The position numbers were made by a program, and so were the translations under genes. The notes below the pieces were generated by a model, which saw nothing but the letters and a program-made list of their open reading frames with translations, did not search any database and was not told the origin of the DNA. Positions 26,298 through 59,238 of a DNA stretch of 64,000 nucleotides are shown here, piece after piece; positions within the stretch are counted from its first letter, which is position 1, and every line of letters begins with the position of its first letter. The stretch comes from an uncultured delta proteobacterium (GTDB lineage Bacteria; Desulfobacterota; Desulfomonilia; Desulfomonilales; Desulfomonilaceae): positions 736,001-800,000 of the forward strand of contig CAWBKB010000003.1 of assembly GCA_963789265.1 (NCBI GenBank), in the 5' to 3' direction.

Positions 26298-26309
26298 CTT
26301 TTTTCCTCC

Positions 26310-28919: not shown

Positions 28920-28948
28920 TTGACAACAGCCGAGTAGTCTTTTATTCT
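28920..28948 (+). promoter_or_regulatory. Sigma70-type promoter of the trp operon
   Basis: TTGACA-N17-TATTCT with an upstream A-tract, 23 nt before the leader ATG. Confidence 0.75.
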
Positions 28949-28971
28949 GGCTGACGGCAGGTAACAACTCC

Positions 28972-29037
28972 ATGATATCCATAAGCAACCGAAACTGGTG
29001 GTGGTGCTGGAAAATCAAACACGGGAGGTCTGCCTGA
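28972..29037 (+). CDS. trpL: trp leader peptide MISISNRNWWWCWKIKHGRSA
   Basis: 21-codon ORF with four TGG codons, between the promoter and the terminator. Confidence 0.88.
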   Translation: MISISNRNWWWCWKIKHGRSA

Positions 29038-29086
29038 GCCGCGATACAAAGTCATAAAGTGTAAAATAGGCATCTAAAACGGAAAT

Positions 29087-29118
29087 AAAGGCCATGGGCA
29101 GACACCCCATGGCCTTTT
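29087..29118 (+). terminator. trp attenuator terminator
   Basis: AAAGGCCATGGG-CAGACAC-CCCATGGCCTTTT; leader GTCTGCC (29028-29034) is complementary to GGCAGAC (29097-29103), giving an antiterminator. Confidence 0.8.
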
Positions 29119-29203
29119 CGCGTTCTGGACTTAGGAGCTTGACGATGGGCAGCGACGACATGTCCTGCCACACCCTCATATTTGACCTGAAAGGCTGTGC
29201 ATC

Positions 29204-30691: not shown

Positions 30692-31353
30692 TGCTACTTG
30701 TCATCGACAATTATGATTCGTTCACCTACAACCTGGTCCAGTATTTTCAAGAGCTTGGCCAAAGAGTGCTCGTTCGGCGGAACGATCAAATCACGCTCGA
30801 TGAGGTTGTGGACCTCAAGCCGCAAGCTGTGGTCATTTCTCCCGGTCCCGGAGGCCCACAGGACGCGGGCATATCAATGCGACTGATCACCGATCTGGGC
30901 AGCACGGTGCCCATCCTCGGCGTTTGCTTGGGGCATCAGGCCATTGGAGCGGCTTTTGGAGCGCAGGTTGTTTCGGCCGATCGACTGATGCATGGCAAAA
31001 CTTCCCCGATATTTTCTAATGACAGCCAGCTTTTTTCGGGGATGAGCAACCCCTTTGAGGCCTGCCGTTACCACAGTTTGATTGTGGACAGAGAAACCTT
31101 GCCCGACTGTTTACAAATTACCGCCTGGACCGACCGGCACGAGATTATGGGAATTCGCCACAAACATCATCCAATTGAGGGCGTTCAATTCCATCCCGAA
31201 TCGATTCTCACGCTGGAAGGAAAACGTATACTCCAGAATTTTATCAATATGACGGACAAATTCTACATGGGCGAGGGAGCCGGGTTAGAACCTGCCTGTC
31301 AAAACTCGGCGAAAAGGATTTTCTCTTCCGGTCGCACAGTCATAAACGGTTGA
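30691..31353 (+). CDS. trpG: Anthranilate synthase component II (glutamine amidotransferase)
   Basis: [27 protein letters not shown]. Confidence 0.93.
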
Positions 31354-31392
31354 AATGACCGCGGTTAAGCGGTCCCCAACAGGAGGCGCAAA

Positions 31393-32412
31393 ATGCTCAA
31401 ACAAGCCATCAAGAAGACAACGGACGGGAAGGATTTGAGCCAACTAGAAATGGAAGCGGCAATGGATGAGATCATGACCGGAAATGCCACTCCAGCTCAG
31501 ATAGGCTCTTTACTCACTGCTCTGAAAATGAAAGGGGAAACCGTCGCGGAAATCACCGGGGCGGCAACCGTAATGAGACGAAAGGCGGTCCCGCTGCCGG
31601 TCCAGAATGACGGCACTCCGCTGATCGACACTTGTGGAACCGGTGGAGATGGAGCCGGGACCTTCAATATATCCACCACCGTGGCATTTATCCTTGCGGG
31701 CGCAGGGTTGAGAGTGGCCAAACATGGCAATCGTTCCGTTTCCAGTTCGTGCGGAAGCGCGGATGTTCTGCGGGAACTCGGCGCAGACTTGGATCAGGCA
31801 CCGGAAAGCGTGGGGAAATGCATTAACAGCACCGGTTTTGGATTCCTTTTCGCGCCCATGTTTCACCGCGCTATGAAACATGCCGCTGGCCCTCGCCAGG
31901 AACTGGGGATTCGGACTTTGTTCAACATCCTCGGGCCTCTCACAAATCCCGCGGGTGCTGCCTATCAACTCCTGGGCGTATATCATCCTGACCTCACCGA
32001 ACCCATCGCGTGGGCGCTTCACGGTCTGGGGACGCGTTCGGCCATGGTGGTGCACGGTATGGAAGGACTTGACGAAATATCTCTTTCGAGCCCGACGAAG
32101 ATCTCGCGGCTCAAGGATGAAAACGTGATCACAACCCAATTCGAGCCGAGTGAGGTCGGGCTTTCTGCGTGCAGCCTTGACAAGATCAAAGGCGGCAGCT
32201 CCGCGGAGAATGCTCGACACCTGCTGGACGTGCTTGAAGGGAAATCCGGCCCTCGGCGAGATGTGGCGCTGATAAACGCGGCGGCAGCTCTTGTCGTGGC
32301 AGAAGTCGCAGACGATTTGAAAGAAGGTCTCCAGGTTGCTACCGAGGCTGTCGATTCCGGCAAGGCACGGCAGAAGCTGGACGAGTTTCTGCAATTCAGA
32401 GTAACACAATGA
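31393..32412 (+). CDS. trpD: Anthranilate phosphoribosyltransferase
   Basis: DTCGTGGD, NIST, KHGNRSVSS, GPLTNPA. Confidence 0.95.
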   Translation: MLKQAIKKTTDGKDLSQLEMEAAMDEIMTGNATPAQIGSLLTALKMKGETVAEITGAATVMRRKAVPLPVQNDGTPLIDTCGTGGDGAGTFNISTTVAFILAGAGLRVAKHGNRSVSSSCGSADVLRELGADLDQAPESVGKCINSTGFGFLFAPMFHRAMKHAAGPRQELGIRTLFNILGPLTNPAGAAYQLLGVYHPDLTEPIAWALHGLGTRSAMVVHGMEGLDEISLSSPTKISRLKDENVITTQFEPSEVGLSACSLDKIKGGSSAENARHLLDVLEGKSGPRRDVALINAAAALVVAEVADDLKEGLQVATEAVDSGKARQKLDEFLQFRVTQ

Positions 32413-33194
32413 CAGCCATACTTCGCAAAATTGCCGGGCTGCGCCTCAATCGCCTGGCCCAAGAAATGCGAGCAGTGAGTCGGGAAACCCTTGAACAAAG
32501 GGCTTCCGATGGACAGCCCGCGCAGAACTTCGCGGAGGTGTTTGCTCAACCGGGCATACACGTAATTGCGGAAATTAAGAAGGCCTCTCCATCCCGCGGC
32601 GTACTCAAGAATAACCTGGATTCCGAACAGCTCGCCGGAACTTACGCGCAAGGGGGTGCTTCGGCCATCTCGGTTCTTACTGAAGCCGATCATTTTTTGG
32701 GCAGCTTATCCGCATTGACGCTGGTAAAGAATGCCACCTCGTTGCCGGTCCTCCGCAAGGATTTCATACTCGATCCTTATCAGGTAGTAGAGACGCGATC
32801 CGCAGGTGCCGATTCCTTTCTTCTCATCGCCGCGCTTCTTGATGCGAGTTCCCTTAGATTTTTAGTGAAAGAGGGGCGCAAATGGGGAATGGAGCCATTA
32901 GTTGAAGTTCATGATGCCGGTGAGCTGAAGATGGCCCTCAAAGCTGAAGCCGTAGTGATCGGGGTCAACAATCGCGATCTGAACACATTCCTGGTCGATG
33001 TGAGCACTTCCCTGAAATTGATTGAGCAAATTCCTGCCGAATGCATTGCTATTTCCGAAAGCGGCATCAAGTCGCGCGACCAGGTCGTCCGGCTTTCGGA
33101 GGCAGGCTTTCGAGGGTTTCTCATAGGCGAGAGCCTTGTAACCTCAGCCGACCCTGTCGCGAAACTTAGAGGCTTTTTGTATGACACCCCCTGA
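32409..33194 (+). CDS. trpC: Indole-3-glycerol phosphate synthase
   Basis: IAEIKKASPSRG, LRKDF, GVNNRDL, SESGI. Confidence 0.95.
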   Translation: MTAILRKIAGLRLNRLAQEMRAVSRETLEQRASDGQPAQNFAEVFAQPGIHVIAEIKKASPSRGVLKNNLDSEQLAGTYAQGGASAISVLTEADHFLGSLSALTLVKNATSLPVLRKDFILDPYQVVETRSAGADSFLLIAALLDASSLRFLVKEGRKWGMEPLVEVHDAGELKMALKAEAVVIGVNNRDLNTFLVDVSTSLKLIEQIPAECIAISESGIKSRDQVVRLSEAGFRGFLIGESLVTSADPVAKLRGFLYDTP

Positions 33195-33849
33195 TTATAC
33201 AGTTCGAGTCAAAATATGCGGCATCACGCGTCTCGCGGATGCTCACGCTGCAATAAACGCTGGGGCCCATGCGCTGGGCTTTGTATTTCATCCGCCCAGC
33301 AGGCGTTTCATAATCCCTGAGAAGGCCAAGGCCATAATCAGCGCCTTGCCGCCTTTCGTGTCGTTAATCGGGGTGTTCGTAAATCTGCCTGTTCCGGAAG
33401 TGCAAGCAATAGTCGATTTATGCGGCCTGCACGCGATTCAGCTTCACGGGAATGAGTCTGCCGAGGAATGCTCCGCGTATGACCGACCAGTCATCAAGGC
33501 GTTTCGATTTGATCCTCTTAAGCAACATCCGGCGTTATCGCGATACAAGGTCTCTGCGGTTCTCGTGGATGCAAGTGCAGCGGGCGAATGGGGAGGCACG
33601 GGAGTGCCCCTGGATTGGGAGCTGCTCAAGCAGCATTTGGCAAGTGAACCTGAAGCCGTGCGCCGGAGACTCGTGTTGGCCGGAGGCCTCACGACACGTA
33701 ATGTAGAAAGGGCCGTTAACCTAGTCGAACCGTATGCCGTCGATGTGTCCACTGGAGTGGAAATCGAGCCTGGAATTAAAGATCCCCAGAAAATCAAGGA
33801 GTTCATGAATGCAGTGCGCAACAGACGAAATGCACACCACGTGGCCTGA
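33181..33849 (+). CDS. trpF: Phosphoribosylanthranilate isomerase
   Basis: VKICGIT, QLHGNE, GGTG, LAGGL, DVSTGVE. Confidence 0.95.
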
Positions 33850-35023
33850 TCGGTACGGGTACTTCGGGGAATTCGGCGGGCGCTTCGTGCCCGAAACCCT
33901 TGTTACCCCTTTGTTGGAACTGGAAGAAGCGTTTTTCGCCAGCAGACAATCCGATGACTTTGCCCGGAAACTGGACAGTCTGTTGCGAGACTACGCGGGC
34001 AGGGAAACCCCCCTCTTCTTTGCCTCGCAATTTTCCGAGACTGTCGGCGGCGCGAAGCTCTACCTGAAGAGAGAGGACCTCCTTCATACCGGAGCACACA
34101 AGATAAACAATACTCTGGGACAAGCGCTACTGGCCAAATACATGGGCAAACCCAAGGTCATCGCTGAGACCGGGGCGGGACAACACGGGGTGGCAACTGC
34201 CGCAGTCGCTGCCCTTTTGGGGCTTGAATGCCGGGTATTCATGGGTGAAGAGGACATGCGGCGACAAGCCCCGAATGTGTTCCGCATGAAGCTTATGGGC
34301 ACCGAAGTAGTCCCCGTGAAAGCGGGCACAGCCACTCTCAAGGATGCCATGGGTGAAGCCATGAGATACTGGGCCGCGCACGTGCATGACACCTTTTACG
34401 TGATCGGTTCCGTGGCCGGGCCGCATCCGTACCCCCTCATGGTCAGGGAATTTCAATCCGTGATCGGCCGTGAAACTCGGCGACAAATTTTGGAAGTCGA
34501 GGGAAAACTCCCCAAGAAGGTAATAGCCTGCGTGGGGGGCGGCAGCAACGCCGCGGGTATTTTCCACGGATTTCTCAAAGATGAAGAGGTAGAACTGATA
34601 GGTGTTGAAGCCGGTGGGCTCGGGATTGATTCCGGAAAACATGGAGCCACTTTATGTGCGGGCCGGGAAGGTGTGTTTCATGGGTCCCGCTCCTTTGTGC
34701 TTCAGGATGAAGAGGGCCAGGTGAGGGAGGCCCACTCGATCTCCGCGGGACTGGACTACCCGGGGGTAGGTCCGGAGCACGCGCTTTTACATATTACCGA
34801 GCGAGTCAGATACGCTTTCATAACGGATGACGAGGCTCTCGAAGCGTTTTCTAGGCTTTGCCGCACAGAAGGCATAATCCCCGCACTCGAGTCCTCACAT
34901 GCCCTGGCATGGGCAATCAAGGAGCTTCCTCAGCTCGGCAAAGACGACATTTGTATTGTCAACCTTTCGGGACGAGGCGACAAGGACATGCCCATAATCG
35001 AAAACGCACTTATGGAGAGCTGA
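33830..35023 (+). CDS. trpB: Tryptophan synthase beta chain
   Basis: [47 protein letters not shown]. Confidence 0.97.
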
Positions 35024-35026
35024 AAT

Positions 35027-35824
35027 ATGGAACGAATTTCGCAAAAGTTTAAATCATTACAGGAAAATGGTGACACGGCCTTCATCCCTTTCTCAGTTGC
35101 CGGATATCCCAATATTGAGAAATCCTTGGAGATTTTCTTGGCACTTGCCGAAGGTGACGTGCTGGAATTTGGCTTCCCGTTCTCGGATCCCGTGGCGGAT
35201 GGTCCTGTTATACAGAATGCTGCAACCGAGGCAATCCGAAGCGGAATAACCATGGATAAGGCTTTGGATATGGTAGGAGAGATTCGTAGCCGAAGCGACA
35301 TCCCAATAATCTTCTTCAGCTACTTCAATCCTATTCATAATTATGGGCCTCAAAGATTTGTGGACCGGGCAAAAGAATGTGGCATCAACGGCGTGCTCGT
35401 GGTCGATCTTCCTCTGGATGAGGTCCGCTGGCTGAAGCCGATCACGGACAAGTTCGGCCTCGCCTGGATTTACTTGGCGACACCTACGACTCCTGATTTC
35501 CGAATCAAGAAGATGGACGAAGACGGTGCCGGATTCCTCTACTACGTGTCCATTGCGGGGGTGACAGGGGCTAGAGGGTCGTTGCCGGAGGGTCTTGCAC
35601 AGAAATGCGATCACGTGAGGCAATTGTGCCGCTTGCCGGTGGCTGTGGGATTCGGCATTTCCAGCCCGGGGCAGGCTTCCGAATTGCGCTCGCACGTGGA
35701 CGGGGTTGTAGTGGGCAGTGAAATAATCTCTCGCGTTCAAAGGGGAGATTCGGTTGAAGATATCGGGAATTGGGTAAAAGAAATGAAGACAGCGCTGTCA
35801 CGGTCGGGCGGTGGGTCAGTTTGA
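35027..35824 (+). CDS. trpA: Tryptophan synthase alpha chain
   Basis: EFGFPFSDPVADGPVIQ, GVTGAR, GFGIS. Confidence 0.96.
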   Translation: MERISQKFKSLQENGDTAFIPFSVAGYPNIEKSLEIFLALAEGDVLEFGFPFSDPVADGPVIQNAATEAIRSGITMDKALDMVGEIRSRSDIPIIFFSYFNPIHNYGPQRFVDRAKECGINGVLVVDLPLDEVRWLKPITDKFGLAWIYLATPTTPDFRIKKMDEDGAGFLYYVSIAGVTGARGSLPEGLAQKCDHVRQLCRLPVAVGFGISSPGQASELRSHVDGVVVGSEIISRVQRGDSVEDIGNWVKEMKTALSRSGGGSV

Positions 35825-36267: not shown

Positions 36268-39200
36268 ATGAACAAGGGCATGTCGATCCAAGATGCCCTT
36301 GCGACATTTGCCGAGACTGTCCGCGCCAAAATGTCGACGTTGACGCTAGGTGAGCCCGAAGACCAGTTGTGCGGTCCTTTCGAGAACTTCATGGGTGATG
36401 TGGCCCGAACGATTGGTTGGAACGTGGTCTGCACAGGCGAATCTCGGCTGCCGGACACTCTTGGGAAGCCGGACTACGCATTCCATGTCAACGGTCTACT
36501 TGCAGGCTACATCGAACTGAAGGCCCCGGGCTTGGGTGCGGACCCGCACCGCTTCACAGGCCACAACCGTGAACAGTGGAAACGCTTTCAGTTCATTCCG
36601 AATTTAATCTACTGCGATGGCAACGCCTGGGGGCTCTATCGCGACGGCAAACTGATCGACAAGATAGTTCGCCTCTCAGGCGATCTCGTCGCTCACGGCA
36701 AAAAGGCAGTCAGCCCAGACGACGCGCATCATGTCGAGCGGTTGCTAAGAGATTTTCTTTCCTGGCAGCCCATTATCCCGACTGACCGCAAGGGCAAGGT
36801 CGATCTTAAGAGATTCGCAGAACTGCTCGCGCCGCTATGCCGGATGATGCGCGATGACGTGACCGACGCTCTGCGTGACACGAACTCCCCGCTCGTCCAA
36901 CTTGCGAAAGACTGGCGGCAACTCCTTTTCCCGGAGGCCTCTGATAGACAATTCGCCGATGCGTACGCCCAGACGGTGGCATTTGCCCTACTCCTTGGTC
37001 GCAGCGAAGGTGCAGATCCTCTAACTCTCGAAAATGCCGAAAAGGGTTTGGCCATTCAGCACGGGCTCCTTTCTCGTGCCCTCCAGGTGCTGACCGATCC
37101 CGCCGCGCGGGCCGAAATGGCCGCATCGCTGGACCTGCTCCTGCGCGTCATGGCCGTTGTCCCGCCTGCCACGCTGAGCGGCCCCGAGCACCCCTGGCTT
37201 TACTTCTACGAAGACTTCCTCGCTGCTTACGATCCCAAGTTGCGCAAGGATGCCGGTGCGTACTACACGCCTGTTGAAGTCGTGCGCGCTCAAGTCCGCC
37301 TCATCGACGACCTTCTTGTGAACCGTCTGGGCAAGCCTCTCGGTTTCGCGGATCCTGACGTTGTCACACTCGATCCTGCCGCAGGCACGGGCACCTATCT
37401 ACTCGGCGTCATCGAGCACACCCTGGGCAGAGTCGAAGCTGAACAGGGAGCCGGCGCCGTGCCGGGGCAGGCTTCCGCGCTCGCGGCCAACTTGTATGGC
37501 TTCGAACTCATGGTGGGGCCTTTCGCGGTAGCTGAACTGCGCGTAAGCCGAGCGCTACGAGACCGCGGCGCGATCTTGCCGGCAGGCGGCTCCCACATCT
37601 ACCTGACCGATACGCTTGAGAGCCCTTACTCCGAGTTGCCGCAGCTCCCGCTGTTCCTGTGGCCCATTGCCGAGCAGCACGCCAGGGCACTCAAGGTCAA
37701 GAGCGATGTCCCTGTTATAGTTTGCCTCGGGAATCCGCCATACGATCGGCACGAAGCCGCCAACCACAATAACAAGGCTCGCACAGGCGGCTGGGCCCGC
37801 TGGGGCGATGACAGCAAAGGCAAGGATGCCATTTTCCGCAGCTTTCTCGATCCCGTACTCGCCGCCGGGCACACGGTACATGCCAAGAATTTGTATAATC
37901 TCTATGTCTATTTTTGGCGTTGGGCGTTATGGAAGGTCTTCGAGCATGACACCTCACGCGGTCCGGGCATTGTCAGTTTCATCAGCGCCTCCAGTTACCT
38001 TGACGGAGATGCGTTCTGCGGCATGCGTGAGCACATGCGCCGGCTCTGTGACGAAATTTGGATCCTTGACCTTGGCGGCGAGGGGCGCGGCACAAGGAAG
38101 AGCGATAATGTTTTTTCCATACAGACGCCGGTTGCTATAGCCGTAGCCGTCCGCGCTGGTAAGGCGAAGGCAAAAAAACCGGCAAGCGTCCACTACGCTC
38201 GCATCGAAGGCATGCGCGACAGGAAGCTCGCATCAATAGATAATATTACTGACTTCACTAGCGTGACTTGGCGAGAATGCCCGAAGAAATGGCAGGCTCC
38301 CTTCCTCCCGCCAGGGGAAGGTCGATTCTTCGCTTGGCCGCTTTTCACCGACTTAATGCCCTGGCAACATTCGGGGATTGAATGCAAGCGAACATGGCCA
38401 ATTGCCCCTGATGCCAACACGCTGCGCGAGCGCTGGCGAAGGCTCCTAGACGCAAAAGACCGGGCAACGGCATTCCACGAGACCAGCGATAGATTGGTTG
38501 GAGGAAGCTACTCCGTGCGGTTAAGTCCTGCCGGATCTGCTATGCCTATCGCGCTGCTTCCCAAGAATGCTCCTGTCCCGCCAATTCGACCTTGCGGCTT
38601 TCGCTCTTTCGACAGGCAGCATATTCTCGCCGACACGCGACTGATTTCTCGTCCTCGTCCCGATCTTTGGAGAGCTGACGGGTCACACCAGCTCTATCTG
38701 ACAAGTCTCTTCAATCATCCTTTAGGCTTCGGCCCGGCTCTTACTTCCAGTGCGCATATCCCGGATCGTCATCACCTGAGAGGCTCCTACGGCGGCAAAG
38801 ATGTTCTTCCGCTCTATCGTGACCGCGAAGCTAAGCACCCCAACGTGGCCCCTGGCTTGCTTCAATTGATGGAAAACCACTACGGTAGCCCAGTTTCTGC
38901 AGAGGATTTCATAGCGTACATTTACGGTATTCTGGCTCAACCTGCTTTCACGGCACGATATGCGAAGGAACTGGAGACCCGCCAAGTTCGAGTGCCGATC
39001 ACAAAAAATGTTGATCTGTTTGTAAAAGTTCGCGATATCGGGGCACATTTGCTTTGGCTGCACACGTACGGCGAACGCTTCGTCCCGGAAGGCAAGCAGC
39101 GCAGCCAGATCCCGCACGATCAGGCGAGATGCATTAAGGCCGTTCCAGGCGATCCGGACCATTACCCCGATTCATTCGAATACAGTCAGGGGACGCAAAC

Positions 39201-39564
39201 TCTTCACGTGGGAAGCGGCGAGTTCCAGCCCGTTGGAGCCGAAGTCTTCGAGTTCGAAGTCTCAGGCCTGAAGGTGGTTCAATCCTGGCTCAAATACCGC
39301 ATGAAGAAGGGCGCGGGGAAAAAATCATCGCCCCTCGACGACATCCGCCCTGAGCGTTGGACCGGCCGATTCACTACGGAATTACTCGAACTGCTCTGGG
39401 TAATGGAGGCGACCGTCAAAGGCTATCCTGAACAGGCACGACTGCTTGATGCCGTCGTTTCCGGCTCCTGTATTCGCGCTGCTGAGCTTTCCTCCGTTCC
39501 TGATGAGGCCCGTAAACCGCTCGCCTCTCCGATGTCAGAGAGCAGCCTGTTCGAGGACCTGTGA
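36268..39564 (+). CDS. Single-polypeptide restriction-modification-like enzyme (PD-(D/E)xK nuclease + N6-adenine methyltransferase + C-terminal specificity domain; type IIG/ISP-like, no helicase)
   Basis: KPD...YIELK; GAYYTP; LDPAAGTGTY (SAM binding); GNPPY (catalytic); no Walker A or DEAD motifs seen. Confidence 0.85.
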   Translation: MNKGMSIQDALATFAETVRAKMSTLTLGEPEDQLCGPFENFMGDVARTIGWNVVCTGESRLPDTLGKPDYAFHVNGLLAGYIELKAPGLGADPHRFTGHNREQWKRFQFIPNLIYCDGNAWGLYRDGKLIDKIVRLSGDLVAHGKKAVSPDDAHHVERLLRDFLSWQPIIPTDRKGKVDLKRFAELLAPLCRMMRDDVTDALRDTNSPLVQLAKDWRQLLFPEASDRQFADAYAQTVAFALLLGRSEGADPLTLENAEKGLAIQHGLLSRALQVLTDPAARAEMAASLDLLLRVMAVVPPATLSGPEHPWLYFYEDFLAAYDPKLRKDAGAYYTPVEVVRAQVRLIDDLLVNRLGKPLGFADPDVVTLDPAAGTGTYLLGVIEHTLGRVEAEQGAGAVPGQASALAANLYGFELMVGPFAVAELRVSRALRDRGAILPAGGSHIYLTDTLESPYSELPQLPLFLWPIAEQHARALKVKSDVPVIVCLGNPPYDRHEAANHNNKARTGGWARWGDDSKGKDAIFRSFLDPVLAAGHTVHAKNLYNLYVYFWRWALWKVFEHDTSRGPGIVSFISASSYLDGDAFCGMREHMRRLCDEIWILDLGGEGRGTRKSDNVFSIQTPVAIAVAVRAGKAKAKKPASVHYARIEGMRDRKLASIDNITDFTSVTWRECPKKWQAPFLPPGEGRFFAWPLFTDLMPWQHSGIECKRTWPIAPDANTLRERWRRLLDAKDRATAFHETSDRLVGGSYSVRLSPAGSAMPIALLPKNAPVPPIRPCGFRSFDRQHILADTRLISRPRPDLWRADGSHQLYLTSLFNHPLGFGPALTSSAHIPDRHHLRGSYGGKDVLPLYRDREAKHPNVAPGLLQLMENHYGSPVSAEDFIAYIYGILAQPAFTARYAKELETRQVRVPITKNVDLFVKVRDIGAHLLWLHTYGERFVPEGKQRSQIPHDQARCIKAVPGDPDHYPDSFEYSQGTQTLHVGSGEFQPVGAEVFEFEVSGLKVVQSWLKYRMKKGAGKKSSPLDDIRPERWTGRFTTELLELLWVMEATVKGYPEQARLLDAVVSGSCIRAAELSSVPDEARKPLASPMSESSLFEDL

Positions 39565-43018: not shown

Positions 43019-45568
43019 ATGCCGACTTATAGGAATGCCCAGGAATTTGCAGACATCCTCACCGCCCTCTGGACCAGGATATTCGCATCCTCTGAAATTA
43101 TGGAGGGCTTTAGAGGGGAGAAGCTGATCGTCAAGTTTCGATTCAGTGACTTTCAGCAGGAGCTATTCATTGATTCCACGGGTGACTCTCCCGGGCTACG
43201 ATGGAACCCTGGCGAGCATACGCCTTTCGACGTTGAGATGATCCTCGCGTCAGACACCAGCCACAAATTTTGGATGCAGGAACTCAATATTCCTTTGGCC
43301 ATTGGCACACGGAAGATCGTTGCCAAAGGTTCGGTTCAAAAGGCACTGAAGCTAATACCGGCCCTGAAGCCGGCGTTTTCGCTATACCCCGTGATTCTCA
43401 AAGAATTCGGCAGAGACGACCTTCTGAAGAAGACCGCCGCAGGAACCAGAAGACGGAGCCGGCTGGCCCGTTTATTCTCGTCGAGGCGAAGATCCAACAC
43501 CTATGATTTGAGCCTGATACCGGACTCGTCCATTCCGTTGAGCAATGGCAAACCGGAAGCAATTGAGCGGGACATGGCGCGAGAGACTGACCCTCAGCCG
43601 TCGGACGTCGATTTGTTCAAAACCATGGTCAGAATCAGGGAGTTTGAGAATCACCTCTCTCAAGCCTTCAAAGCGGGTGAGATCCCTTCCGAGGCAATTC
43701 ACCTCTCAATAGGGCAGGAGGCTGTTGCAGCCGGAGTGTGCCTGAATCTCAGGGATACGGACTATCTAAACACAACTCACAGAGGACATGGACACATTAT
43801 TGCAAAGGGCGCAGACGTCAAAGGGATGATGGCCGAACTTTACGGCAAGGCGAACGGTCTTTGCCGAGGACTGGGCGGTTCAATGCACGTGACTGACGGC
43901 AAGAAGGGCGTGTTAGGCGCAAACGGCATTGTGGCCGCGGGTTATCTGTTGGCTATGGGTGCGGGTTTTTCCATCAAGAACGCTGGGTCGTCGGACGCCA
44001 TATCTGTGGTCATTGCCGGGGATGGGTCTGTAAATCAGGGAATGTTCCATGAGGCCATGAACATGATTTCGGTCTTAGAGCTGCCCGTACTGGTGGTGGT
44101 GGAGAACAACCTGTACGGCGAATTCACGTCGGTTGAAAGGCACTCAGGCGAACCGGAGCTGTTCAAAAGGGCGCACGCCTACCGGATTGAGAGCCATCGG
44201 GTGGATGGGAATGACGTGAGGAGCGTTTCGGTAAAGGTTCGAGAAATAGTCCACAACATGCGCAAAGATCGCAAACCAAGGCTCCTGGAACTGATGACGT
44301 ATCGTTGGCACGGGCACATGGAAGGCGATCCGGAGGCGTACCGAAACAAAGATGAAGTCTCCAAGTATAAGGAATTGGACCCCATTGTGGGCCTCGAGAA
44401 ATCACTCCTCGCTGAAGGCGCGGTCCGGCAGAAAGATCTGGATTGGATCAGAGCGGCCGCGACCCGGCAAATCAAGGACGCCGAACAATACGCAGTCAAT
44501 TCGCCATCTCCTGAACTATCCACCTTGACAGAGCACATCTATGCGCCGGAGGACGGGAGGCTCTTTTCAGGCTCCTTTGATCCGGGTAACCGGGCAGTGC
44601 GCGAAATGTCGGTTTCCCAGGCAATCAATCAGGCTATTGCAGAAGAGATGGACAGGGATCAGAAGGTATTTCTATGGGGAGAAGATGTTTCCCTCGGGGG
44701 ATACTTCAACGTCACTAGCGGGCTTGTCAATAGATTCGGTCATTCGAGAGTCGTTGACACGCCTATAAGCGAAAACGGTATCGTGGGAGGCGCAGTGGGC
44801 GCGGCCATGACAGGGAGCAGACCTATCTGCGAGATCCTGTTCGCAGACTTCCTCACCTGTTGCATGGACCCGATAATGAATCAGGCGGCCAAGATACGTT
44901 TCATGACAGGCGGACAGGTCTCGGTGCCGCTTACCATACGTACCCCTGTTGGAAGTGGAATCGGCATGGCGGCTCAACACTCGCAATCCATGGAGCGGTT
45001 CTTTTTCGGCATTCCCGGACTAATTGTGTTGGCCGTTTCAGACGCTTTTACTGCCAAGGGTCTAATGAAGTCGGCAATCCGGTCTGAAAATCCGGTGCTC
45101 GTATTTGAGCACAAACTCCTTTACGCTGAGTCAGGCAATGTTCCCATCGAGGAATATACTTTGCCCATAGGCAAGGCTCGAATTGTCCTCGGAGGAGAGG
45201 ACGTCACGATCGTGACCTATTCGCTTGGAGTCAGTATCGCGAGCAAGGCGTCGGAGCTTCTTGCACAGAAAGGGATTCGCGCCGAGATCATCGACCTTGC
45301 CACTCTGTACCCCATGGACACTGAGACAATCCTACAGTCCGTACTCAAAACAGGTCACTTGGTTGTGTTGGAAGAGGCCCTCTTTAGTGGCAGCGTGGGC
45401 TCCGAGGTCGTTTCCAGGGTAGCCCTGGCCGGCTTTGGTTTGCTCAAGAAGGCGCCGGTGAAAATCTGCGCGATTGACAGCCCTATCCCGTACGCCAAGA
45501 ACCTGGAGGTCTCAATGCTTCCGGCACCCGAGAAGGTCGTAGAGACAATAGAGTCCCTGCTGAAATAG
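43019..45568 (+). CDS. SCP2-like domain fused to single-chain ThDP-dependent E1 alpha+beta (acetoin/2-oxoacid dehydrogenase-like)
   Basis: E1 alpha HLSIGQEA, THRGHGH, GGSMH, GDGSVNQG...ENN, YRWHGH; E1 beta GEDV, DTPISE, AQHSQ; N-terminal ~130 aa with an SCP2-like C-terminal pattern (HKFWMQELNIPLAIGTRKIVAKGSVQKALKL). Confidence 0.85.
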   Translation: MPTYRNAQEFADILTALWTRIFASSEIMEGFRGEKLIVKFRFSDFQQELFIDSTGDSPGLRWNPGEHTPFDVEMILASDTSHKFWMQELNIPLAIGTRKIVAKGSVQKALKLIPALKPAFSLYPVILKEFGRDDLLKKTAAGTRRRSRLARLFSSRRRSNTYDLSLIPDSSIPLSNGKPEAIERDMARETDPQPSDVDLFKTMVRIREFENHLSQAFKAGEIPSEAIHLSIGQEAVAAGVCLNLRDTDYLNTTHRGHGHIIAKGADVKGMMAELYGKANGLCRGLGGSMHVTDGKKGVLGANGIVAAGYLLAMGAGFSIKNAGSSDAISVVIAGDGSVNQGMFHEAMNMISVLELPVLVVVENNLYGEFTSVERHSGEPELFKRAHAYRIESHRVDGNDVRSVSVKVREIVHNMRKDRKPRLLELMTYRWHGHMEGDPEAYRNKDEVSKYKELDPIVGLEKSLLAEGAVRQKDLDWIRAAATRQIKDAEQYAVNSPSPELSTLTEHIYAPEDGRLFSGSFDPGNRAVREMSVSQAINQAIAEEMDRDQKVFLWGEDVSLGGYFNVTSGLVNRFGHSRVVDTPISENGIVGGAVGAAMTGSRPICEILFADFLTCCMDPIMNQAAKIRFMTGGQVSVPLTIRTPVGSGIGMAAQHSQSMERFFFGIPGLIVLAVSDAFTAKGLMKSAIRSENPVLVFEHKLLYAESGNVPIEEYTLPIGKARIVLGGEDVTIVTYSLGVSIASKASELLAQKGIRAEIIDLATLYPMDTETILQSVLKTGHLVVLEEALFSGSVGSEVVSRVALAGFGLLKKAPVKICAIDSPIPYAKNLEVSMLPAPEKVVETIESLLK

Positions 45569-45661
45569 CCACAGGCGGCCGGGATTCGGGGCCGGATGAA
45601 TGTGAAATGCTACGTTGCCGGGATCGCAAATCCTAAAGCTCACGCAGAGGAGGGAAATACC

Positions 45662-46432
45662 ATGCCGGATTCCAAGTGCATTTTCATTACTGGAGCAGGA
45701 TCGGGGATAGGTATGGCCACAGCTCTCCATTTCTCCAGGAGGGGCTGGTTTGTGGGATTGTACGATATCAACGAGTCTGAGCTGGAAAAAGCTGCGGGTG
45801 CGCTGGAAACAGATCGGATGTGTTTTCAGAAACTTGATGTGACGGACTGGGAACAGGTCAAGGCTGCTTTGGAGCAATTTTCCCTTTGTACGGCGGGGAA
45901 GCTGCACGTGCTCTTCAACTGCGCCGGAGTTATGAAGACCGGACCCTTTGAATCGATACCTTTCGAGGCTCACCGAGCCATGACCAGAGTGAATGCAGAA
46001 GGTGTTCTGAATTGCACGTACCAAGCGTTTCCACACCTTCAGAGCTCGAGGCCGGCCATGGTAATCAGTATGGCTTCCGCTTCAGCCCTTTATGGAACAC
46101 CTGATTATGCGACCTATTCATCGACAAAGTTCTGGGTTAGGGGCTTCACGGAAGCCCTCAACATCGAATGGGAACGTCATGGCATCCACGTGTGTGACAT
46201 TATAACCCCTTTTGTTGACACGCCCCTCCTGCACGGCGACAATTCAGGGGCTATAAATTCCCTTGGCATTAAGTTATCGCCGGAAGACCTGGCTCAGGTC
46301 GTATGGCAGGCCGCGCATGGCCGCAAGGTCCACTGGCTGGTGACACCCTACATGAAGTTCAACTGGATTGTCGCCAGGAAGATGCCCGACCGTCTGGCCA
46401 GACTAATAATGAAACGAATATGTAGATACTGA
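45662..46432 (+). CDS. Short-chain dehydrogenase/reductase
   Basis: TGAGSGIG, NCAG, catalytic S...YSSTK. Confidence 0.9.
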   Translation: MPDSKCIFITGAGSGIGMATALHFSRRGWFVGLYDINESELEKAAGALETDRMCFQKLDVTDWEQVKAALEQFSLCTAGKLHVLFNCAGVMKTGPFESIPFEAHRAMTRVNAEGVLNCTYQAFPHLQSSRPAMVISMASASALYGTPDYATYSSTKFWVRGFTEALNIEWERHGIHVCDIITPFVDTPLLHGDNSGAINSLGIKLSPEDLAQVVWQAAHGRKVHWLVTPYMKFNWIVARKMPDRLARLIMKRICRY

Positions 46433-46893: not shown

Positions 46894-47007
46894 CCTTTGA
46901 TTACGGATTTCTGTCCGATTCATTGATTTCTAGGATGATGCTGCTGCATCAGGAAATTGCTAGAGCTTGGCCATGCAACACATCCCACAGACGTGAAGGA
47001 AGCCGCG

Positions 47008-49458
47008 ATGAAACTCATGCCGATGATTTTCGTCTTATCGCTTCTGTTATACGGCCCGGTCTCCTCTCAAGCGGTCCCGGTCCGTGGAGGCCCGGATATT
47101 CATACCTCAGCTCTTCGGGCTCTTCAAGGAGGCGATGTCCAGACCGCGGTGAGCTTGCTTTCGCAGGCAATAAAGGCGGAACCTGACAATTACCGTTATT
47201 ACAATGACAGGGGGGTGGCCTATAAAAGGTTAGGAGATTTCGAGAAAGCTCTTTCGGATTATGCAAACGCCCTTAAGATTAAGCCTAACTACACCCATGC
47301 TTTGAATAACAGAGGCGTACTGTACCTTCAACAAGGTAATTATGACAAGGCGATACAGGACTTTCGTGCAGCTCTAAAGCAGGAGGGATTGAAAGGCAAA
47401 TTACACACTAATCTGGGCATAGCCCTTGCGCGCAAAGGAGATTATCAAAGCGCAATTAAAGAGTTTGAATCAGCGGTTTCGTTTCGACCGGTGGATGACA
47501 GATCATTCCTTTTCATGGCCGAATCCTTGGAGAAAGTCGGAGAGAAGGATAAGGCCCTGAAATTGTATGAGTTGGCCCAGGGGCTTGCGACGGATTCTGC
47601 TACAAGGGACTTGTTAGAAAAAAGAATAGCCTCCCTTGAGAAAAGCTTGTCCGTGACAAAAACCGCTCCTGCTTCTACTCCTGTCCGAGGTCGACAAGTC
47701 CCTGCCCATTCTCCCCGGAAAAAGCCTGTCTCTAATCAGGCAAGTGCGAAACATCCTGACGGAACACGGCAAATACTCCTGGCACGGCCTATACACCAGG
47801 CCGAGAACAAAGCAATGGTCAAACCTGCTGCAGCGCAGGACATCGGCATAGACAGCCTCCGTGCTCTCGATAGTCTTTGCCGCGACAGGGCCCTGAAAAA
47901 GTTTTCGGCTGCCTCCATAGGAATCTATCGCCAGGGGATCCAGTTTCTGGAGCAGTCCGAAATCAGGAAGGCTTTGATTAGATTTGAGGACGTTCTGCAA
48001 CTTGAGACAAGAAACAAGAATGCTCCTGCCGTGGCCTGGAGCAATCTGGAAACAGGCCGATTATACTCAAAGCTGGGGGACTACCCTACAGGAGCGGGCT
48101 TCTTGGAAGAGGCCTTGAAGCTTTTCAGGCGACTCAAGGCCACAGACGAAATAATTTTGACCCTTGTAGAGCTGGGGTCCAACCAAAAAATCGCGGGGAA
48201 TAAGGAAAGAGCCGCGGCTTTATATTCAAAGGCCACGGAAGAGGCTACATGCAAAGGTCAGTATAAGCTCGCGAAGGCGGTGTCAGACCTGGCCCGAGGC
48301 CGCAAGCCTCAGCGGCTTGCCCGAGCCGGCGCACCTCCCAAAGAACAGAGAGCTGTTCAACAAAAAATTGTTGCCCCCAAGAAAGAAGCTGTTCCGGAAA
48401 AAGAAAAACCGAGCCAAAACCACAATGTACCCAAAATTGGAAGCCGGGCTAATAGTGGCCAGAGGTCCGTGGTTCGGGTCGAATCCGGAAGCAAACCCAG
48501 GCCGGTGCCGACCGCAGTGATAACTATGAAAAAAGAGGGCAGAGCATCGAAGTCGGCACTACCCCCCGAAACAAAACCTTCATCGAAGGTCAGTGCACTT
48601 TCGCGGGAGAATGTCGCGGTCCCTGAGAAGCTCAAGCAGCCGGAAAGCAAATCCGGTCCGGACAAGGCTTTGCGTCGCGAACAGAGTACTCCTGGTGTTC
48701 CCGCGCCAAAAGCCCTTGCCGCTGAGAGCCGCGTTCCCGTGGCAAAACCTGCCCTTGCGGAAAGAAGGACGCGAGGCGAAAGAAGCATCCGGCAAAACCT
48801 GGCTGAACTGAAAAAGTTTAAGAAAACGGATGATGAAGCGAACATGATCGTCGTGCTCGAACGGCTCGCCCATAAGTATACGGGGAGAAAAGACTATAGA
48901 AAGGCTCTTGCTGCGCTGACGGCTTCACTTGCATTTCGGCAAAAACTGGGGATGGAAAAGGGGATGGAAAACATTCTGCGACAAAGCGGCCTTGTGAAGG
49001 AAAAACTGGGGGACAAAGCAGGAGCTTTGGAAGATCTTACCCGCGCAGCGGCCCAGGCTGCCGTGAACGGCGCATCCAAGACGGATAGAGCGCTGGCTGC
49101 CAGAGCTAAAAAGCTGGCTGCTTCGATCGGATTGGATTCGGACGCGGCGCTCCGGGCATTTCGGCTCCTATGGAAAGCGCGCTTGGCAGGAAATAACCAC
49201 GGGGACACCGAGGCGCTGTATTTGATAGGCAAGCTTTACGATGAGGCGGACAAGCCTTTTGAGGCTCTTCAGTATTACGAGCGATCATCTGCTTCTATGT
49301 TGGCTGATAAGGCGCGACTCTACGAAAAGATTGGAAAGACGAGTATGGCGGAGCAATCGTATAATGAGGCCCTGGAACGCTTCAGAAAGCTGGATTATTC
49401 GCGCTATCTCAACCTTTTACAAAAACTGCACGCGCCAAAGAGACTATCTCGTCACTAA
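47008..49458 (+). CDS. Large exported TPR protein with Lys/Pro-rich linkers
   Basis: Signal peptide; canonical TPRs (YNDRGVAYKRLGDFEKALSDY, LNNRGVLYLQQGNYDKAIQDF). Confidence 0.85.
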   Translation: MKLMPMIFVLSLLLYGPVSSQAVPVRGGPDIHTSALRALQGGDVQTAVSLLSQAIKAEPDNYRYYNDRGVAYKRLGDFEKALSDYANALKIKPNYTHALNNRGVLYLQQGNYDKAIQDFRAALKQEGLKGKLHTNLGIALARKGDYQSAIKEFESAVSFRPVDDRSFLFMAESLEKVGEKDKALKLYELAQGLATDSATRDLLEKRIASLEKSLSVTKTAPASTPVRGRQVPAHSPRKKPVSNQASAKHPDGTRQILLARPIHQAENKAMVKPAAAQDIGIDSLRALDSLCRDRALKKFSAASIGIYRQGIQFLEQSEIRKALIRFEDVLQLETRNKNAPAVAWSNLETGRLYSKLGDYPTGAGFLEEALKLFRRLKATDEIILTLVELGSNQKIAGNKERAAALYSKATEEATCKGQYKLAKAVSDLARGRKPQRLARAGAPPKEQRAVQQKIVAPKKEAVPEKEKPSQNHNVPKIGSRANSGQRSVVRVESGSKPRPVPTAVITMKKEGRASKSALPPETKPSSKVSALSRENVAVPEKLKQPESKSGPDKALRREQSTPGVPAPKALAAESRVPVAKPALAERRTRGERSIRQNLAELKKFKKTDDEANMIVVLERLAHKYTGRKDYRKALAALTASLAFRQKLGMEKGMENILRQSGLVKEKLGDKAGALEDLTRAAAQAAVNGASKTDRALAARAKKLAASIGLDSDAALRAFRLLWKARLAGNNHGDTEALYLIGKLYDEADKPFEALQYYERSSASMLADKARLYEKIGKTSMAEQSYNEALERFRKLDYSRYLNLLQKLHAPKRLSRH

Positions 49459-51016: not shown

Positions 51017-52505
51017 ATGAATCTTAGCGAGATCGTAGATCGCTTCGCGGGGGATATGCCCAACCAACCGGCTTTGGTTTTTGAGGACCAGAACCATCTC
51101 TTATGCGGAACTACTTCGATCAATAAACAAGTTGTCCAATGCTCTTGTGAAAGCCGGTATTAAGAAAGGCGATCGCGTTGCGATCTTGATGGGAAACAGG
51201 CCCGAGTTTGTTGTAGGCTACTATGCATCAATGCGAATAGGGGCTGCTGCTGTTACGCTAAATCCTATGTCCACGTCTTATGAACTCAGTCATTATCTCG
51301 CTGAGAGTAAGCCTGCCGCGATCCTATGTAAAGGGGATCAGATCGCCAAGATTGAAACCATCAGAGACCGCGCGGATTACTTGAAAATGGTCATAAGTAC
51401 CGAGCCGGCAGAAGGCGTGGTGCTTTACGACGAGATTGAAAAAGACTTCTCGGACGGTTTCAAGGCATTATCATTGGATCCTGATGATCCTGCGGTGGTG
51501 ATATTCACGGCCGGACTCTTAGGCCGGGCCCTCGGAGCTACTCTGAGTCACCAGAATTTGGACACGAACTCCAATATGCTGAGAGATGATTGCGGTCGCG
51601 GCTCTGAGAGTCACGGCCTGGCCCTGATCCCGCTTTTCCATGCATTCGGGGCCGCTGTGAACCTTCTGGGGACAATGAAGGTGGGTGGGACTGTATATCT
51701 CGTAGAACGTGTAGATTTTCCGAAGCTGATACCCTGGCTTCAGAAGGCTCGCGTTACATACACCGGCCTGGTCCCTATGGTCTATTACGGCCTTCTCTAT
51801 CACCCCTCCTGTAAGGACCTGGATCTTTCGAGTCTGGAGATAGGTATAAGCGGGGGGGCGCCTCTCTCTATGGAAATCTACGAGAAATTCTGTGCACGAT
51901 ACAAGATAGACATCTATCAGGGGTACGGCCTCACTGAAGCCTCACCGGTGGTCTCATGGAACAACATCAAGATTCTCAACAAACCGCCAACGGTAGGGAA
52001 GCCTCTCCCCAATGTCACAATCGAAGTTCATGACGACGACGGCAAGCCACTACCGCCGGGCACCCAAGGGGAGGTGATAGTCAAGGGCCCCAACGTGATG
52101 CTGGGTTACTTGGGCAAACCTACCGAAACTGCGACGGTGATCCGGAATGAATGGTTGCACACGGGGGACATCGGGTACCTGGACGCCGATGGCTATCTCA
52201 CGCTTACGGGGCTCAAAAAGGACCTCATTATTACTTCGGGGTTCAACGTGTACTGCCAGGAGGTTGAAGAGATTCTCATCCGACATCCCCACGTGGCTGA
52301 CGTCGCTCTGATAGGCATCGACGATCTTATGCGGGGACAGGTGATAGAGGCCCTTGTCGTTCCTGAGCGAGGCGTAAAACCGGAAGAGAGAGACATTATC
52401 CGGTTCTGCAAGGAGTATCTTTCAAGGTACAAGTGTCCCAGAAAGGTTCTGCTTGTCAAAGAAATAGTTAGAGACGCCAACGGAAAGGCGGTACGCTGGA
52501 GTTAG
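51017..52505 (+). CDS. Long-chain acyl-CoA synthetase family (AMP-binding), with an apparent 1-nt insertion near 51090
   Basis: MNLSEIV...PALVFED continues in the +1 frame as TISYAEL; GYGLTE, WLHTGDIG. Confidence 0.85.
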
Positions 52506-57858: not shown

Positions 57859-59238
57859 GTGTCAACTTTTATCCCATGGGCTGTCAAGAATTCGCCGCGT
57901 TCCAAGAACGGGCCTGTCCTGAAGCTGGGGTTAAACTTCAGCCGGGGGGGCCGTCTCCTGGTTATGCTTGCAGCCTGCTTCTTCCTGTGGCCTCAGGCCT
58001 TGTCGGCATCCTCGGGGGCAAAAGCAAGAGCGCAAGCCTATGCTTATTTTGATTTTCCCACCTGCGTGCGGTATGCGCTTGAACACTCGGAAGTTTTCTT
58101 GAGAAATCGCATCGATATACAAATTGCGTCCGCTGACCTCAAAGACGCCCATGCTCAACTTCTCCCCAGGCTTGAAATTGTAACCCAATATTATCTCGCC
58201 AGTGCCTACCAACTTGACAATCCTCTGAGCATCGACCTTTACGTGCAAGACTGGAATCCGCTCCTCGCCCTGCTAAAAATAAAATCTAACGGCATATTGG
58301 TGGATATTGGTAGGATTACTCATTACGATAAAATTGCAGACAATATTTCCAAGATGGCCACGATTTTTTATCGCATCCATATCCTGGAAAAGACGATTCG
58401 AGCGCGCAAGCAACTGCTCGCGCTTCAGCAGGACAAGGTGAGTTACGGCAAGAGTCGAAACGTGCAAGGGGCCATGGATCAATTGGAGCTGAGGGTATGG
58501 ACGAACAAGATGAAGGAAGAACATATTAAGCTCAAGGATTTAGAGACCGAACTGCTGGATAAAATGGGCCAGCTTAAGATGCTCATGGGCTATCATCCTG
58601 ATTATTACCTTCCCCTTGATACTCGCGACGCGGCCGATCAGATTCTTGCAGGGTTTAACGGTCAATTGGTTACGTTCCCCGAAATTCAGGGGTCCAATCT
58701 CGGCTTGAAAATTTTGGCCAAAAAAGAACAACTCCAGTCGAACTTAGTCACCGGAGCGTACGTTGCTCTTGTACCAAAGCCGGTTCTGGTCCTGGAGAAT
58801 ATATCAAATACGATAGACCGGTCAAACGGGTTCAACTTGGCCTTGGGGATGGACTATACGCTCTGGGACGGATTCAAGCGAGTGCGAGACATCAAGAGAC
58901 AGAAAATGAAGGCAGAGCAGGTGAAAATAGACCGCAATCAATATTCGGAGGATCTCTATAACAAGTTCAGAAACTTAAGGGAAAAGCTTGATTTGGCTGG
59001 AGAGAAGGAAGTATTTTATCGCGAACAAGCTCGACTTGCCGAAATGACCGAAGAGAAAGCCTTCCTCCAATACAAGGCTGGAGACATCCCATACGATCAG
59101 TACGTGGAGAAGCGTCTTGAAAAGGTGGAGGCGAATATCGATTCGATCGGAAGCCTTGAAGGAAGGGTAACGTCCCTGATTGATCTCGCCACTATTGCAG
59201 GAGGTTTAAATAAGTACAATGCCGGAATTCGATACTGA
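57859..59238 (+). CDS. TolC-family outer membrane efflux protein (start uncertain)
   Basis: Signal region, helical repeats, LLPRLEI, DYTLWDGF; overlaps the adaptor gene. Confidence 0.75.
   Translation: MSTFIPWAVKNSPRSKNGPVLKLGLNFSRGGRLLVMLAACFFLWPQALSASSGAKARAQAYAYFDFPTCVRYALEHSEVFLRNRIDIQIASADLKDAHAQLLPRLEIVTQYYLASAYQLDNPLSIDLYVQDWNPLLALLKIKSNGILVDIGRITHYDKIADNISKMATIFYRIHILEKTIRARKQLLALQQDKVSYGKSRNVQGAMDQLELRVWTNKMKEEHIKLKDLETELLDKMGQLKMLMGYHPDYYLPLDTRDAADQILAGFNGQLVTFPEIQGSNLGLKILAKKEQLQSNLVTGAYVALVPKPVLVLENISNTIDRSNGFNLALGMDYTLWDGFKRVRDIKRQKMKAEQVKIDRNQYSEDLYNKFRNLREKLDLAGEKEVFYREQARLAEMTEEKAFLQYKAGDIPYDQYVEKRLEKVEANIDSIGSLEGRVTSLIDLATIAGGLNKYNAGIRY

Follow-up and report, generated by a model that had tools for sequence, protein, structure and literature searches.

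We analysed a 64,000-nucleotide stretch of DNA (the window) from an uncultured delta proteobacterium (assembly GCA_963789265.1, contig CAWBKB010000003.1, positions 736,001 to 800,000 of the forward strand), and in particular one gene that joins an SCP2-like lipid-binding domain, through a basic linker, to the alpha and beta parts of a thiamine diphosphate (ThDP)-dependent E1 enzyme. The gene, at 43019..45568 (+), encodes a single chain of 849 residues; it is delimited by an open reading frame (ORF) with the ribosome-binding site (RBS) aaaggag upstream of the ATG at 43019 and a stop at 45568, and is matched by full-length homologues. The fusion, hereafter SCP2-E1, is genuine, old and strongly conserved. 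As for its function, we tentatively favor an E2-independent ThDP enzyme that would form or cleave C–C bonds on a lipophilic carbonyl compound. The E2 independence is suggested by the lack of E2 genes near the fused gene, by carrier genomes without any E2, and by the dedicated E1 that accompanies the only E2 of the same genome.

Domain architecture of SCP2-E1

The N-terminal domain (residues 1–137; 43019..43429, +) is predicted to adopt the SCP2 fold. The Pfam SCP2 model (PF02036) scored 18.6 bits (E 0.0025) on residues 1–194 alone, under its cut-off of 21.3 bits, and six members of the same subfamily scored above it (P0176, 44.0; P0254, 30.8; P0186, 29.3; P0191, 27.6; P0221, 25.5; and P0178, 21.6 bits). 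The AlphaFold2 model of residues 1–150, calculated from a 50-row alignment of the window and 49 related loci, had a pLDDT of 88.9 and a pTM of 0.83. When this model was compared with the PDB in Foldseek, ranks 1–46 were occupied exclusively by SCP2-fold proteins; 35 matches had E ≤ 1e-3, and the best one had E 4.5e-6 and a probability of 1.00. The target TM-scores against stand-alone SCP2 chains were mostly 0.6–0.75. The matched structures included human MFE-2 SCP-2L, the C-terminal domains of alkylsulfatases, UbiJ-SCP2, and SCP2 proteins from yeast, insects and archaea. Moreover, SCP2 clusters made up 27 of the 30 matches found for this domain with ESM Atlas features. An earlier note on this DNA had recognized the SCP2-like domain by eye, and that call is right, as the first 46 Foldseek ranks are all of this fold.

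The linker that follows (residues 138–195; 43430..43603, +) is polybasic and disordered, as judged from the full-length model and from its composition in homologues. The full-length model had a pLDDT of 79.5, which fell below 50 at residues 138–157 and 180–185. The Arg-rich string TRRRSRLARLFSSRRRS, which the earlier note had quoted from between the N-terminal domain and E1, is present in the translated protein. Across 38 homologues, the first ~ 27 residues of the linker contained a median of 10 Lys/Arg versus 2 Asp/Glu, in many cases around an F-x-[LF]-F core; the homologues agree in the composition of the linker and differ in its sequence. Such a basic-aromatic segment may act as a membrane-surface anchor. 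A calculation of the docking of the SCP2 domain (1–137) on the E1 body (196–849), run without controls, gave a score of 0.00, which speaks neither for nor against such a contact.

The remainder of the chain contains three E1 modules, each far above its Pfam cut-off. The alpha module, which binds the ThDP diphosphate, spans residues 202–499 (43622..44515, +; E1_dh, 225.5 bits, cut-off 22). The pyrimidine-binding module of E1 beta covers residues 529–702 (44603..45124, +; Transket_pyr, 141.4 bits, cut-off 27), and its C-terminal module residues 718–840 (45170..45538, +; Transketolase_C, 102.7 bits, cut-off 25.9). These scores place the protein among the alpha/beta-type ThDP-dependent E1 enzymes, and the fused gene encodes a complete alpha-plus-beta E1 in one chain. 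The NCBIfam equivalogs for pyruvate dehydrogenase (PDH) E1 were missed (TIGR03182, 311.9 versus 393.85; NF008854, 344.1 versus 454), and the subfamily model NF006667 was the only one of the three models passed (328.8 versus 321). NCBIfam thus places the protein near PDH-type E1, under the equivalog cut-offs. The closest solved structures were human PDH E1 alpha and beta and the beta subunit of a Thermus 2-oxo acid dehydrogenase. The fused E1 is also 43% identical to a Thermus pair whose alpha gene carries the annotation acoA.

The catalytic residues of the canonical enzymes are preserved. Gly334-Asp335-Gly336 and Asn363-Asn364 (the GDG...ENN motif), Glu605, His433 and His654 were invariant in the 38 homologues and aligned with those of canonical E1s; the histidines of the HGH sequence in the alpha module were likewise invariant. 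We take Glu605 to be the ThDP-activating glutamate, GDG...NN to be the ThDP-binding motif, and His433 and His654 to be the active-site histidines. Several other residues are unlike those of every canonical E1 in the alignment, namely Glu368/Phe369 after the ENN motif, His431, Met434/Glu435, and Cys614/Cys615. The vicinal Cys614-Cys615 pair (window 44858–44863) lies 9–10 residues past Glu605 and is invariant or nearly so in the SCP2-E1 family, and the aligned canonical E1 beta sequences have Leu/Phe/Lys and then Ala/Met/Gly at these positions.

Distribution and phylogeny

A protein search with the fused sequence returned more than 100 clusters of ~ 845 residues, with 60–92% identity and 96–100% coverage. 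For the analysis of loci, we used contigs from one genome per species; 242 stretches encoded a relative, 80 loci were kept, and 78 related loci were analysed. SCP2-E1 relatives thus occur in at least 242 species, the majority of them anaerobic bacteria. A single ORF covered the query from residue 6 or earlier to residue 840 or later in 60 of the 78 loci, and the other 18 were broken by contig ends or frame breaks. Most of the kept loci came from Thermodesulfobacteriota and ~ 15 from Chloroflexota/Anaerolineae; Myxococcota, Spirochaetota, Calditrichota and Rhodothermota were among the other phyla. Desulfoluna spongiiphila and Desulfoluna limicola are cultured carriers. Carrier metagenome-assembled genomes (MAGs) are labelled Desulforapulum autotrophicum, Desulfosudis oleivorans, Desulfonema limicola and Caldithrix abyssi.

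A maximum-likelihood tree calculated for the beta module (the final 335 residues) had a 99/96 branch with 61 SCP2-bearing rows on one side and three non-SCP2 E1 rows on the other. The SCP2-bearing E1s therefore appear to form one clade, and a single origin is supported, though not proven. Two deep clades were observed within it, one centred on Chloroflexota and Myxococcota and the other on Thermodesulfobacteriota. Taken with the full-length clusters and the 60 uninterrupted ORFs, this single clade indicates that the SCP2-E1 alpha/beta fusion proposed in the earlier note is real and not an artefact. The SCP2-E1 of a locus labelled Candidatus Bathyarchaeia archaeon (L025) had very short branches and was sister, within the bacterial clade, to that of a Nitrospiraceae-labelled MAG (L015); the archaeal label is probably a binning error rather than a sign of an archaeal carrier.

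A word-based search for short proteins matching residues 1–140 yielded 40 matches, mostly with 53–87% identity, and no clear evidence of a naturally split form among them. We read most of these matches as fragments of the fused gene because they are located on contigs shorter than 5 kb. The few found on long contigs (P0126, P0129, P0148 and P0159) may be frame-broken copies of it.

The architecture is widespread in the sequence databases, uncharacterised, and filed under generic names: ‘2-oxoisovalerate dehydrogenase E1’, ‘pyruvate dehydrogenase E1 beta’, ‘SCP2 domain protein’ or ‘SCP2 sterol-binding domain-containing protein’. Full-text literature searches found no published account of an SCP2-E1 fusion or of a fusion between SCP2 and an iron-containing alcohol dehydrogenase (Fe-ADH), and the SCP2-E1 architecture was absent among the solved structures matched. 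The stretch studied here occurs, whole or in part, in four soil-metagenome DNA runs of one study, with no RNA run listed.

E2 and E3 genes in the window, the genome and the family

The Pfam scan of the window covered 44 ORFs, of which 34 had at least 150 residues and 10 surrounded the fused gene. None of them contained 2-oxoacid_dh, Biotin_lipoyl (PF00364) or Pyr_redox_dim, which bears out the earlier statement that no lipoyl, E2 or E3 gene is present in the window. Two look-alikes were rejected: a protein with Pyr_redox_2 and Fer4_20 at 2–2644 (−), which has none of the E2/E3 domains, and an HlyD-type Biotin_lipoyl_2 protein at 59219–60316, which is not an E2.

In the whole genome, the E2 family PF00198 was found only on a contig other than that of the window. 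It belongs to a conventional operon of lplA (lipoate ligase), E1 alpha, E1 beta, E2 and Lpd (E3), in which the E2 has lipoyl, E3-binding and catalytic domains. The operon carries separate E1 alpha and E1 beta genes, so the E2 of this genome already has a dedicated E1. The earlier note had reckoned with a standard pyruvate or acetoin E1 served by E2 and E3 encoded elsewhere; such E2 and E3 genes do exist elsewhere, but they are found together with an E1 alpha/beta pair of their own. Within this operon (L083; G000:C4:273000-290000), E1 beta and E2 are each spread over two frames (ORFs 6706–7194 / 6923–7687 and 7680–8798), and these frame breaks may be assembly errors or a mark of decaying genes.

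The same separation from E2 was observed across the family. None of the 79 places examined by blastp with three E2 queries had an E2 within 8 kb of the fusion, and the operon context of an acetoin dehydrogenase E1 (AcoA/AcoB) was accordingly missing. PF00198 was absent from 9 of 30 carrier genomes, including that of the isolate Desulfoluna spongiiphila AA1. Of the 83 genomes searched in the class of the window, all at least 90% complete, seven contain the fusion; an E2 is present in four of these (G000, G048, G071 and G073) and missing from three (G078, G084 and G086), each of which is 99% complete. Neither gene linkage nor genome content, then, assigns SCP2-E1 to an E1-E2-E3 complex.

The SCP2 subfamily outside the fusion

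Relatives of the SCP2 domain occur without E1, and their gene contexts bear on the nature of the substrate. The SCP2-domain profile matched 60 of the 83 genomes of the class, and 53 of those matches were not the fusion, being mostly stand-alone proteins of ~ 131 residues. When 1.84 billion representative proteins were searched with the profile, 832 matched at E ≤ 1e-3, and the stricter limit of E ≤ 1e-10 left 404. E1 alpha-beta and Fe-ADH were the only partners that recurred in fusions among the best 150.

In four of four sampled loci, the stand-alone SCP2 gene is followed directly by an ORF of 532–535 residues. This ORF is an AMP-binding acyl-CoA synthetase in both loci scanned with Pfam (L084 and L087); L088 and L089, compared by ORF size and order, have the same arrangement. 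In L087 the next genes encode an acyl-CoA dehydrogenase and a thiolase, and in L084 a thiolase gene lies ~ 3 kb further downstream. A gene for a sigma-54 regulator adjoins the stand-alone SCP2 locus in both, on the upstream side in L084. The SCP2 protein of L084 (7039-7434; G000:C3:900038-900433) is the paralogue from the same genome as the window, ~ 100 kb past it; it has 131 residues and shares 33% identity with the domain in the fusion (E 3e-29).

The Fe-ADH fusions come from the same bacterial class and carry an SCP2 domain of the same subfamily at their C-terminus (L085:3711-5591 and L090:3947-5821). Downstream of the fusion in L085 are, in order, genes for a ferredoxin, a 735-residue protein without a Pfam match, an alpha/beta hydrolase, and a WS/DGAT wax-ester synthase, so that this locus looks like a long-chain alcohol/wax module; L090 agrees with it in the sizes and order of the ORFs. 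Together, the contexts of the subfamily provide independent evidence suggesting that its members handle long-chain aliphatic compounds. A lipophilic substrate for SCP2-E1 would fit, because the domain is found elsewhere in fatty-acyl and fatty-alcohol gene contexts.

Gene neighborhoods

The neighbors of the fused gene share a theme rather than a pathway. When 1015 neighboring ORFs were clustered in the search for a neighborhood that would name one, even the most frequent cluster reached no more than 11 of 79 places. What recurs are enzymes that produce 2-oxo acids or convert keto, hydroxy and amino groups into one another. In 16 of the 78 related loci, and in the window as well, the same-strand gene directly next to the fusion encodes an NAD(P)-linked dehydrogenase; the 16 comprise six classical short-chain dehydrogenases/reductases (SDRs), four extended SDR/epimerase-like proteins, one RmlD-like protein, three saccharopine-dehydrogenase-like proteins, one Zn-ADH, and one Glu/Leu/Phe/Val dehydrogenase. 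Class-III aminotransferases are found near the fused gene in eight loci, adjacent to it in four, at times together with an amino-acid permease and a further small SCP2 protein. Six loci have enoyl-CoA hydratases, and AMP-binding enzymes are found in seven places, including the one at 51081–52505 of the window.

In Desulfoluna spongiiphila (L095; G003:C12:144000-163999), genes for a sigma-54 activator, an alanine dehydrogenase and a Na:alanine symporter are located just upstream of SCP2-E1 on the same strand, an arrangement suggestive of alanine-derived pyruvate as the donor in this lineage. The gene also adjoins a glycine-cleavage/lipoate cluster. We considered Lpd, LipB and LipA near the Desulfoluna gene as a possible lipoyl link and rejected them, since they belong to the glycine-cleavage cluster gcvT-H-PA-PB-lipB-lipA, with lpd divergent.

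A gene for a large TPR-repeat protein is found downstream of the fused gene in the window (46957–49458, after the SDR gene) and follows E1 directly in three Chloroflexota loci (L058:10611-12386, L062:10953-12731 and L065:10725-12503). This adjacency may be due to chance, because the TPR proteins fall in different sequence clusters.

Proposed reaction

Under the favored reading, the E1 core would take a small 2-oxo acid, with pyruvate the likeliest, and decarboxylate it to the enamine on ThDP. Meanwhile, the SCP2 domain would hold a carbonyl compound that is long-chain or lipophilic in some other way, such as a fatty aldehyde, and offer it at the active-site funnel. Attack of the enamine on this carbonyl would form the C–C bond and give a long-chain acyloin (alpha-hydroxyketone); alternatively, the enzyme may run in reverse and cleave such an acyloin. 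The basic-aromatic linker may keep the enzyme at an anionic membrane surface, where the substrates would reside. Neighboring dehydrogenases (in the window, the SDR) or aminotransferases could then interconvert the keto, hydroxy or amino groups of the product or substrate, and the enzyme present would vary between lineages.

Support for a 2-oxo acid donor comes from the alpha module, because it is nearest to PDH-type E1 alpha, and from neighbors that make pyruvate or other 2-oxo acids, namely class-III aminotransferases, alanine dehydrogenase, and Glu/Leu/Phe/Val dehydrogenase. One published report (PMC7696235) indicates that carboligation is possible for an isolated E1.

Alternative explanations

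Several observations weigh against an E2-independent lipid enzyme. The two histidines that serve the reductive acylation of lipoamide in canonical E1s are both invariant here. An E2 is present in 21 of the 30 carrier genomes and in four of the seven from the class of the window. Lipoyl synthase (LipA) and LipB or LplA were kept in all five E2-less carriers tested. The nearest non-SCP2 relatives (43–46% identity) directly adjoin E2, and also Lpd and LipA; they include an Agrobacterium plasmid pair and a single-chain alpha-beta gene of Fuscovulum, which is followed by E2 and an SDR. The neighborhoods of SCP2-E1 are very variable, with no pathway partner conserved across the family. Finally, the outgroup of the tree held only three rows, and for this reason the single origin is supported and not proven.

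A first rival would be an orphan conventional E1 that docks in trans on E2/E3 encoded elsewhere and reductively acylates lipoamide, with the SCP2 domain widening its range to lipophilic 2-oxo acids or acyloins, e.g. long- or branched-chain 2-oxo acids. Every catalytic residue of a lipoyl-dependent E1 is invariant, E2 and E3 exist in the genome of the window, the closest non-SCP2 relatives are encoded beside E2 and Lpd, and lipoate synthesis persists even where E2 is missing. We nevertheless regard this explanation as rather unlikely, because none of the 79 places has an E2 within 8 kb, because nine of 30 carriers and three nearly complete genomes of the class have no PF00198 gene to dock on, and because the E2 operon of the genome at hand already supplies an E1 pair.

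Whether the SCP2 domain takes the place of the lipoyl swinging arm is a separate matter. On its flexible, membrane-seeking basic tether, it would then fetch a membrane-resident fatty aldehyde or quinone into the E1 funnel, a specific role that we consider doubtful.

A non-oxidative decarboxylase of lipophilic 2-oxo acids is improbable to a somewhat greater degree. From 2-oxo fatty acids it would make fatty aldehydes with one carbon less, for alcohol, wax or alpha-oxidation routes. E1 enzymes do decarboxylate 2-oxo acids, the sister SCP2 fusions are Fe-ADHs beside a wax-ester synthase, and the adjacent aminotransferases and amino-acid dehydrogenases could supply the 2-oxo acid. However, aldehyde release from E1 is normally slow, the alpha module is PDH/acetoin-like and unlike that of long-chain enzymes, and no aldehyde-handling partner is conserved.

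The earlier note had placed an SDR gene about 90 nucleotides downstream and had proposed a two-enzyme module with it, in which, for example, the SDR would oxidize a diol to an acyloin before ThDP-dependent cleavage or ligation. The gene is indeed there (45662..46432, +; 256 residues), 93 nucleotides from the fused gene. Its longest ORF begins at 45596, but the start at 45662 fits the RBS gaggagg and the 256-residue homologues. The product is a classical SDR (adh_short, 142.5 bits; NF006123, 301.5 bits versus a cut-off of 261), and NF006123 is an uncharacterised SDR family. No terminator-like site was found between the two genes. The same arrangement is present in the two closest relatives (87–92% identity), and related SDRs are adjacent in four further loci, which speaks for such a module. 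Across the family, however, a related SDR (cluster c1) lies within 8 kb of the fused gene in only 10 of the 78 loci and is the immediate same-strand neighbor in six, on the downstream side in L003, L004, L029 and L053 and on the upstream side in L032 and L043; where a related SDR is present without being adjacent, it is 2–7 kb away, and the remaining loci have unrelated neighbors. The pairing is rare, and the SDR is therefore a lineage-level neighbor, not a defining partner. An obligate E1–SDR module as the defining system is thus unlikely for the family and possible for the lineage, and the proposed diol-to-acyloin chemistry itself is possible.

Least probable of all is an oxidoreductase that passes electrons from a 2-oxo acid to a quinone or another membrane acceptor. 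Here the SCP2 domain would stand in for the lipoyl arm and carry a membrane quinone to the enamine on ThDP, and the products would be quinol and either acetate or acetyl-phosphate, with neither E2 nor E3 nor flavin involved. UbiJ-type SCP2 is among the structural matches, the polybasic-aromatic linker resembles a membrane anchor, many carriers are without E2, and E1s reduce artificial dyes (the related Thermus gene is named acetoin:2,6-dichlorophenolindophenol oxidoreductase), but no quinone-related genes were present among the neighbors examined, and we know of no precedent for a flavin-free E1 that reduces quinones physiologically.

Comparison with known systems

In its E1 part, SCP2-E1 has the same three Pfam modules in the same order as the alpha2beta2 E1 of pyruvate and acetoin dehydrogenase complexes, with 43–46% identity, and it shares their ThDP motif, activating Glu and active-site His. 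A fusion of alpha and beta is known as well, in the 697-residue ‘dehydrogenase E1 component subunit alpha/beta’ of Fuscovulum blasticum plasmid pRsa. The non-SCP2 E1s compared here differ in having neither an SCP2 domain nor a basic linker and in being encoded directly beside E2, often with Lpd and LipA, whereas SCP2-E1 was never beside E2.

An E2-free carboligase of the E1 type has reportedly been found in AviB1/AviB2, an alpha/beta pair involved in sugar branching of the natural product avilamycin. Enzymes of this type transfer a two-carbon unit to a carbonyl acceptor without a lipoyl partner; they consist of separate subunits, are encoded in biosynthetic clusters, and act on nucleotide sugars. 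SCP2-E1 differs in being one fused chain with a lipid-binding domain and in its variable chromosomal contexts.

The SCP2 fold of the N-terminal domain is shared with human MFE-2 SCP-2L, SCPx thiolase, the C-terminal domain of alkylsulfatase, and UbiJ, in which a lipid-binding domain is tethered to an enzyme acting on hydrophobic substrates. Unlike in those fusions, the partner in SCP2-E1 is a ThDP-dependent E1, the SCP2 domain is N-terminal, and the linker has ~ 57 residues. Closest in this respect are the Fe-ADH–SCP2 fusions (L085, L090, P0176 and P0221), whose SCP2 domains match the family profile with E 5.5e-33 to 4.8e-26. Like SCP2-E1, they occur in the class of the window and join the domain to an enzyme that handles carbonyls, but their SCP2 domain is C-terminal and their partner is an alcohol/aldehyde oxidoreductase.

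Other features of the window

Upstream of the fused gene, positions 36268–39564 encode a Type ISP restriction-modification enzyme of 1098 residues (N6_Mtase and Type_ISP_C), which is followed on the opposite strand by small ORFs without a Pfam match and a ferric-reductase-like membrane protein. A large block for the biosynthesis of aromatic amino acids occupies 19071–35824. It contains genes for a shikimate kinase–3-dehydroquinate (DHQ) synthase fusion, chorismate synthase, shikimate dehydrogenase, EPSP synthase, prephenate dehydrogenase, DAHP synthase and chorismate mutase-prephenate dehydratase, as well as the full trpEGDCFBA set.

Biological significance

E1 enzymes are textbook parts of three-component complexes. 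SCP2-E1 puts a lipid-carrier domain on such an enzyme, in a family that is often found in genomes without any E2. Because the database names are generic or resemble those of E1 dehydrogenases, these proteins are probably misread in metabolic reconstructions of anaerobes. If the SCP2 domain did replace the lipoyl arm, the protein would be a self-contained ‘2-oxo acid : lipid’ enzyme that couples pyruvate decarboxylation, free of E2, to lipid chemistry or the quinone pool in anaerobes, and it would be a possible source of long-chain acyloins, vicinal diols and 2-amino-3-hydroxy alkanes. For long-chain substrates, SCP2-E1 could also serve as a ThDP biocatalyst that brings its own carrier, and its natural substrate could reveal an unrecognised step of C–C bond formation or cleavage in anaerobic lipid metabolism.

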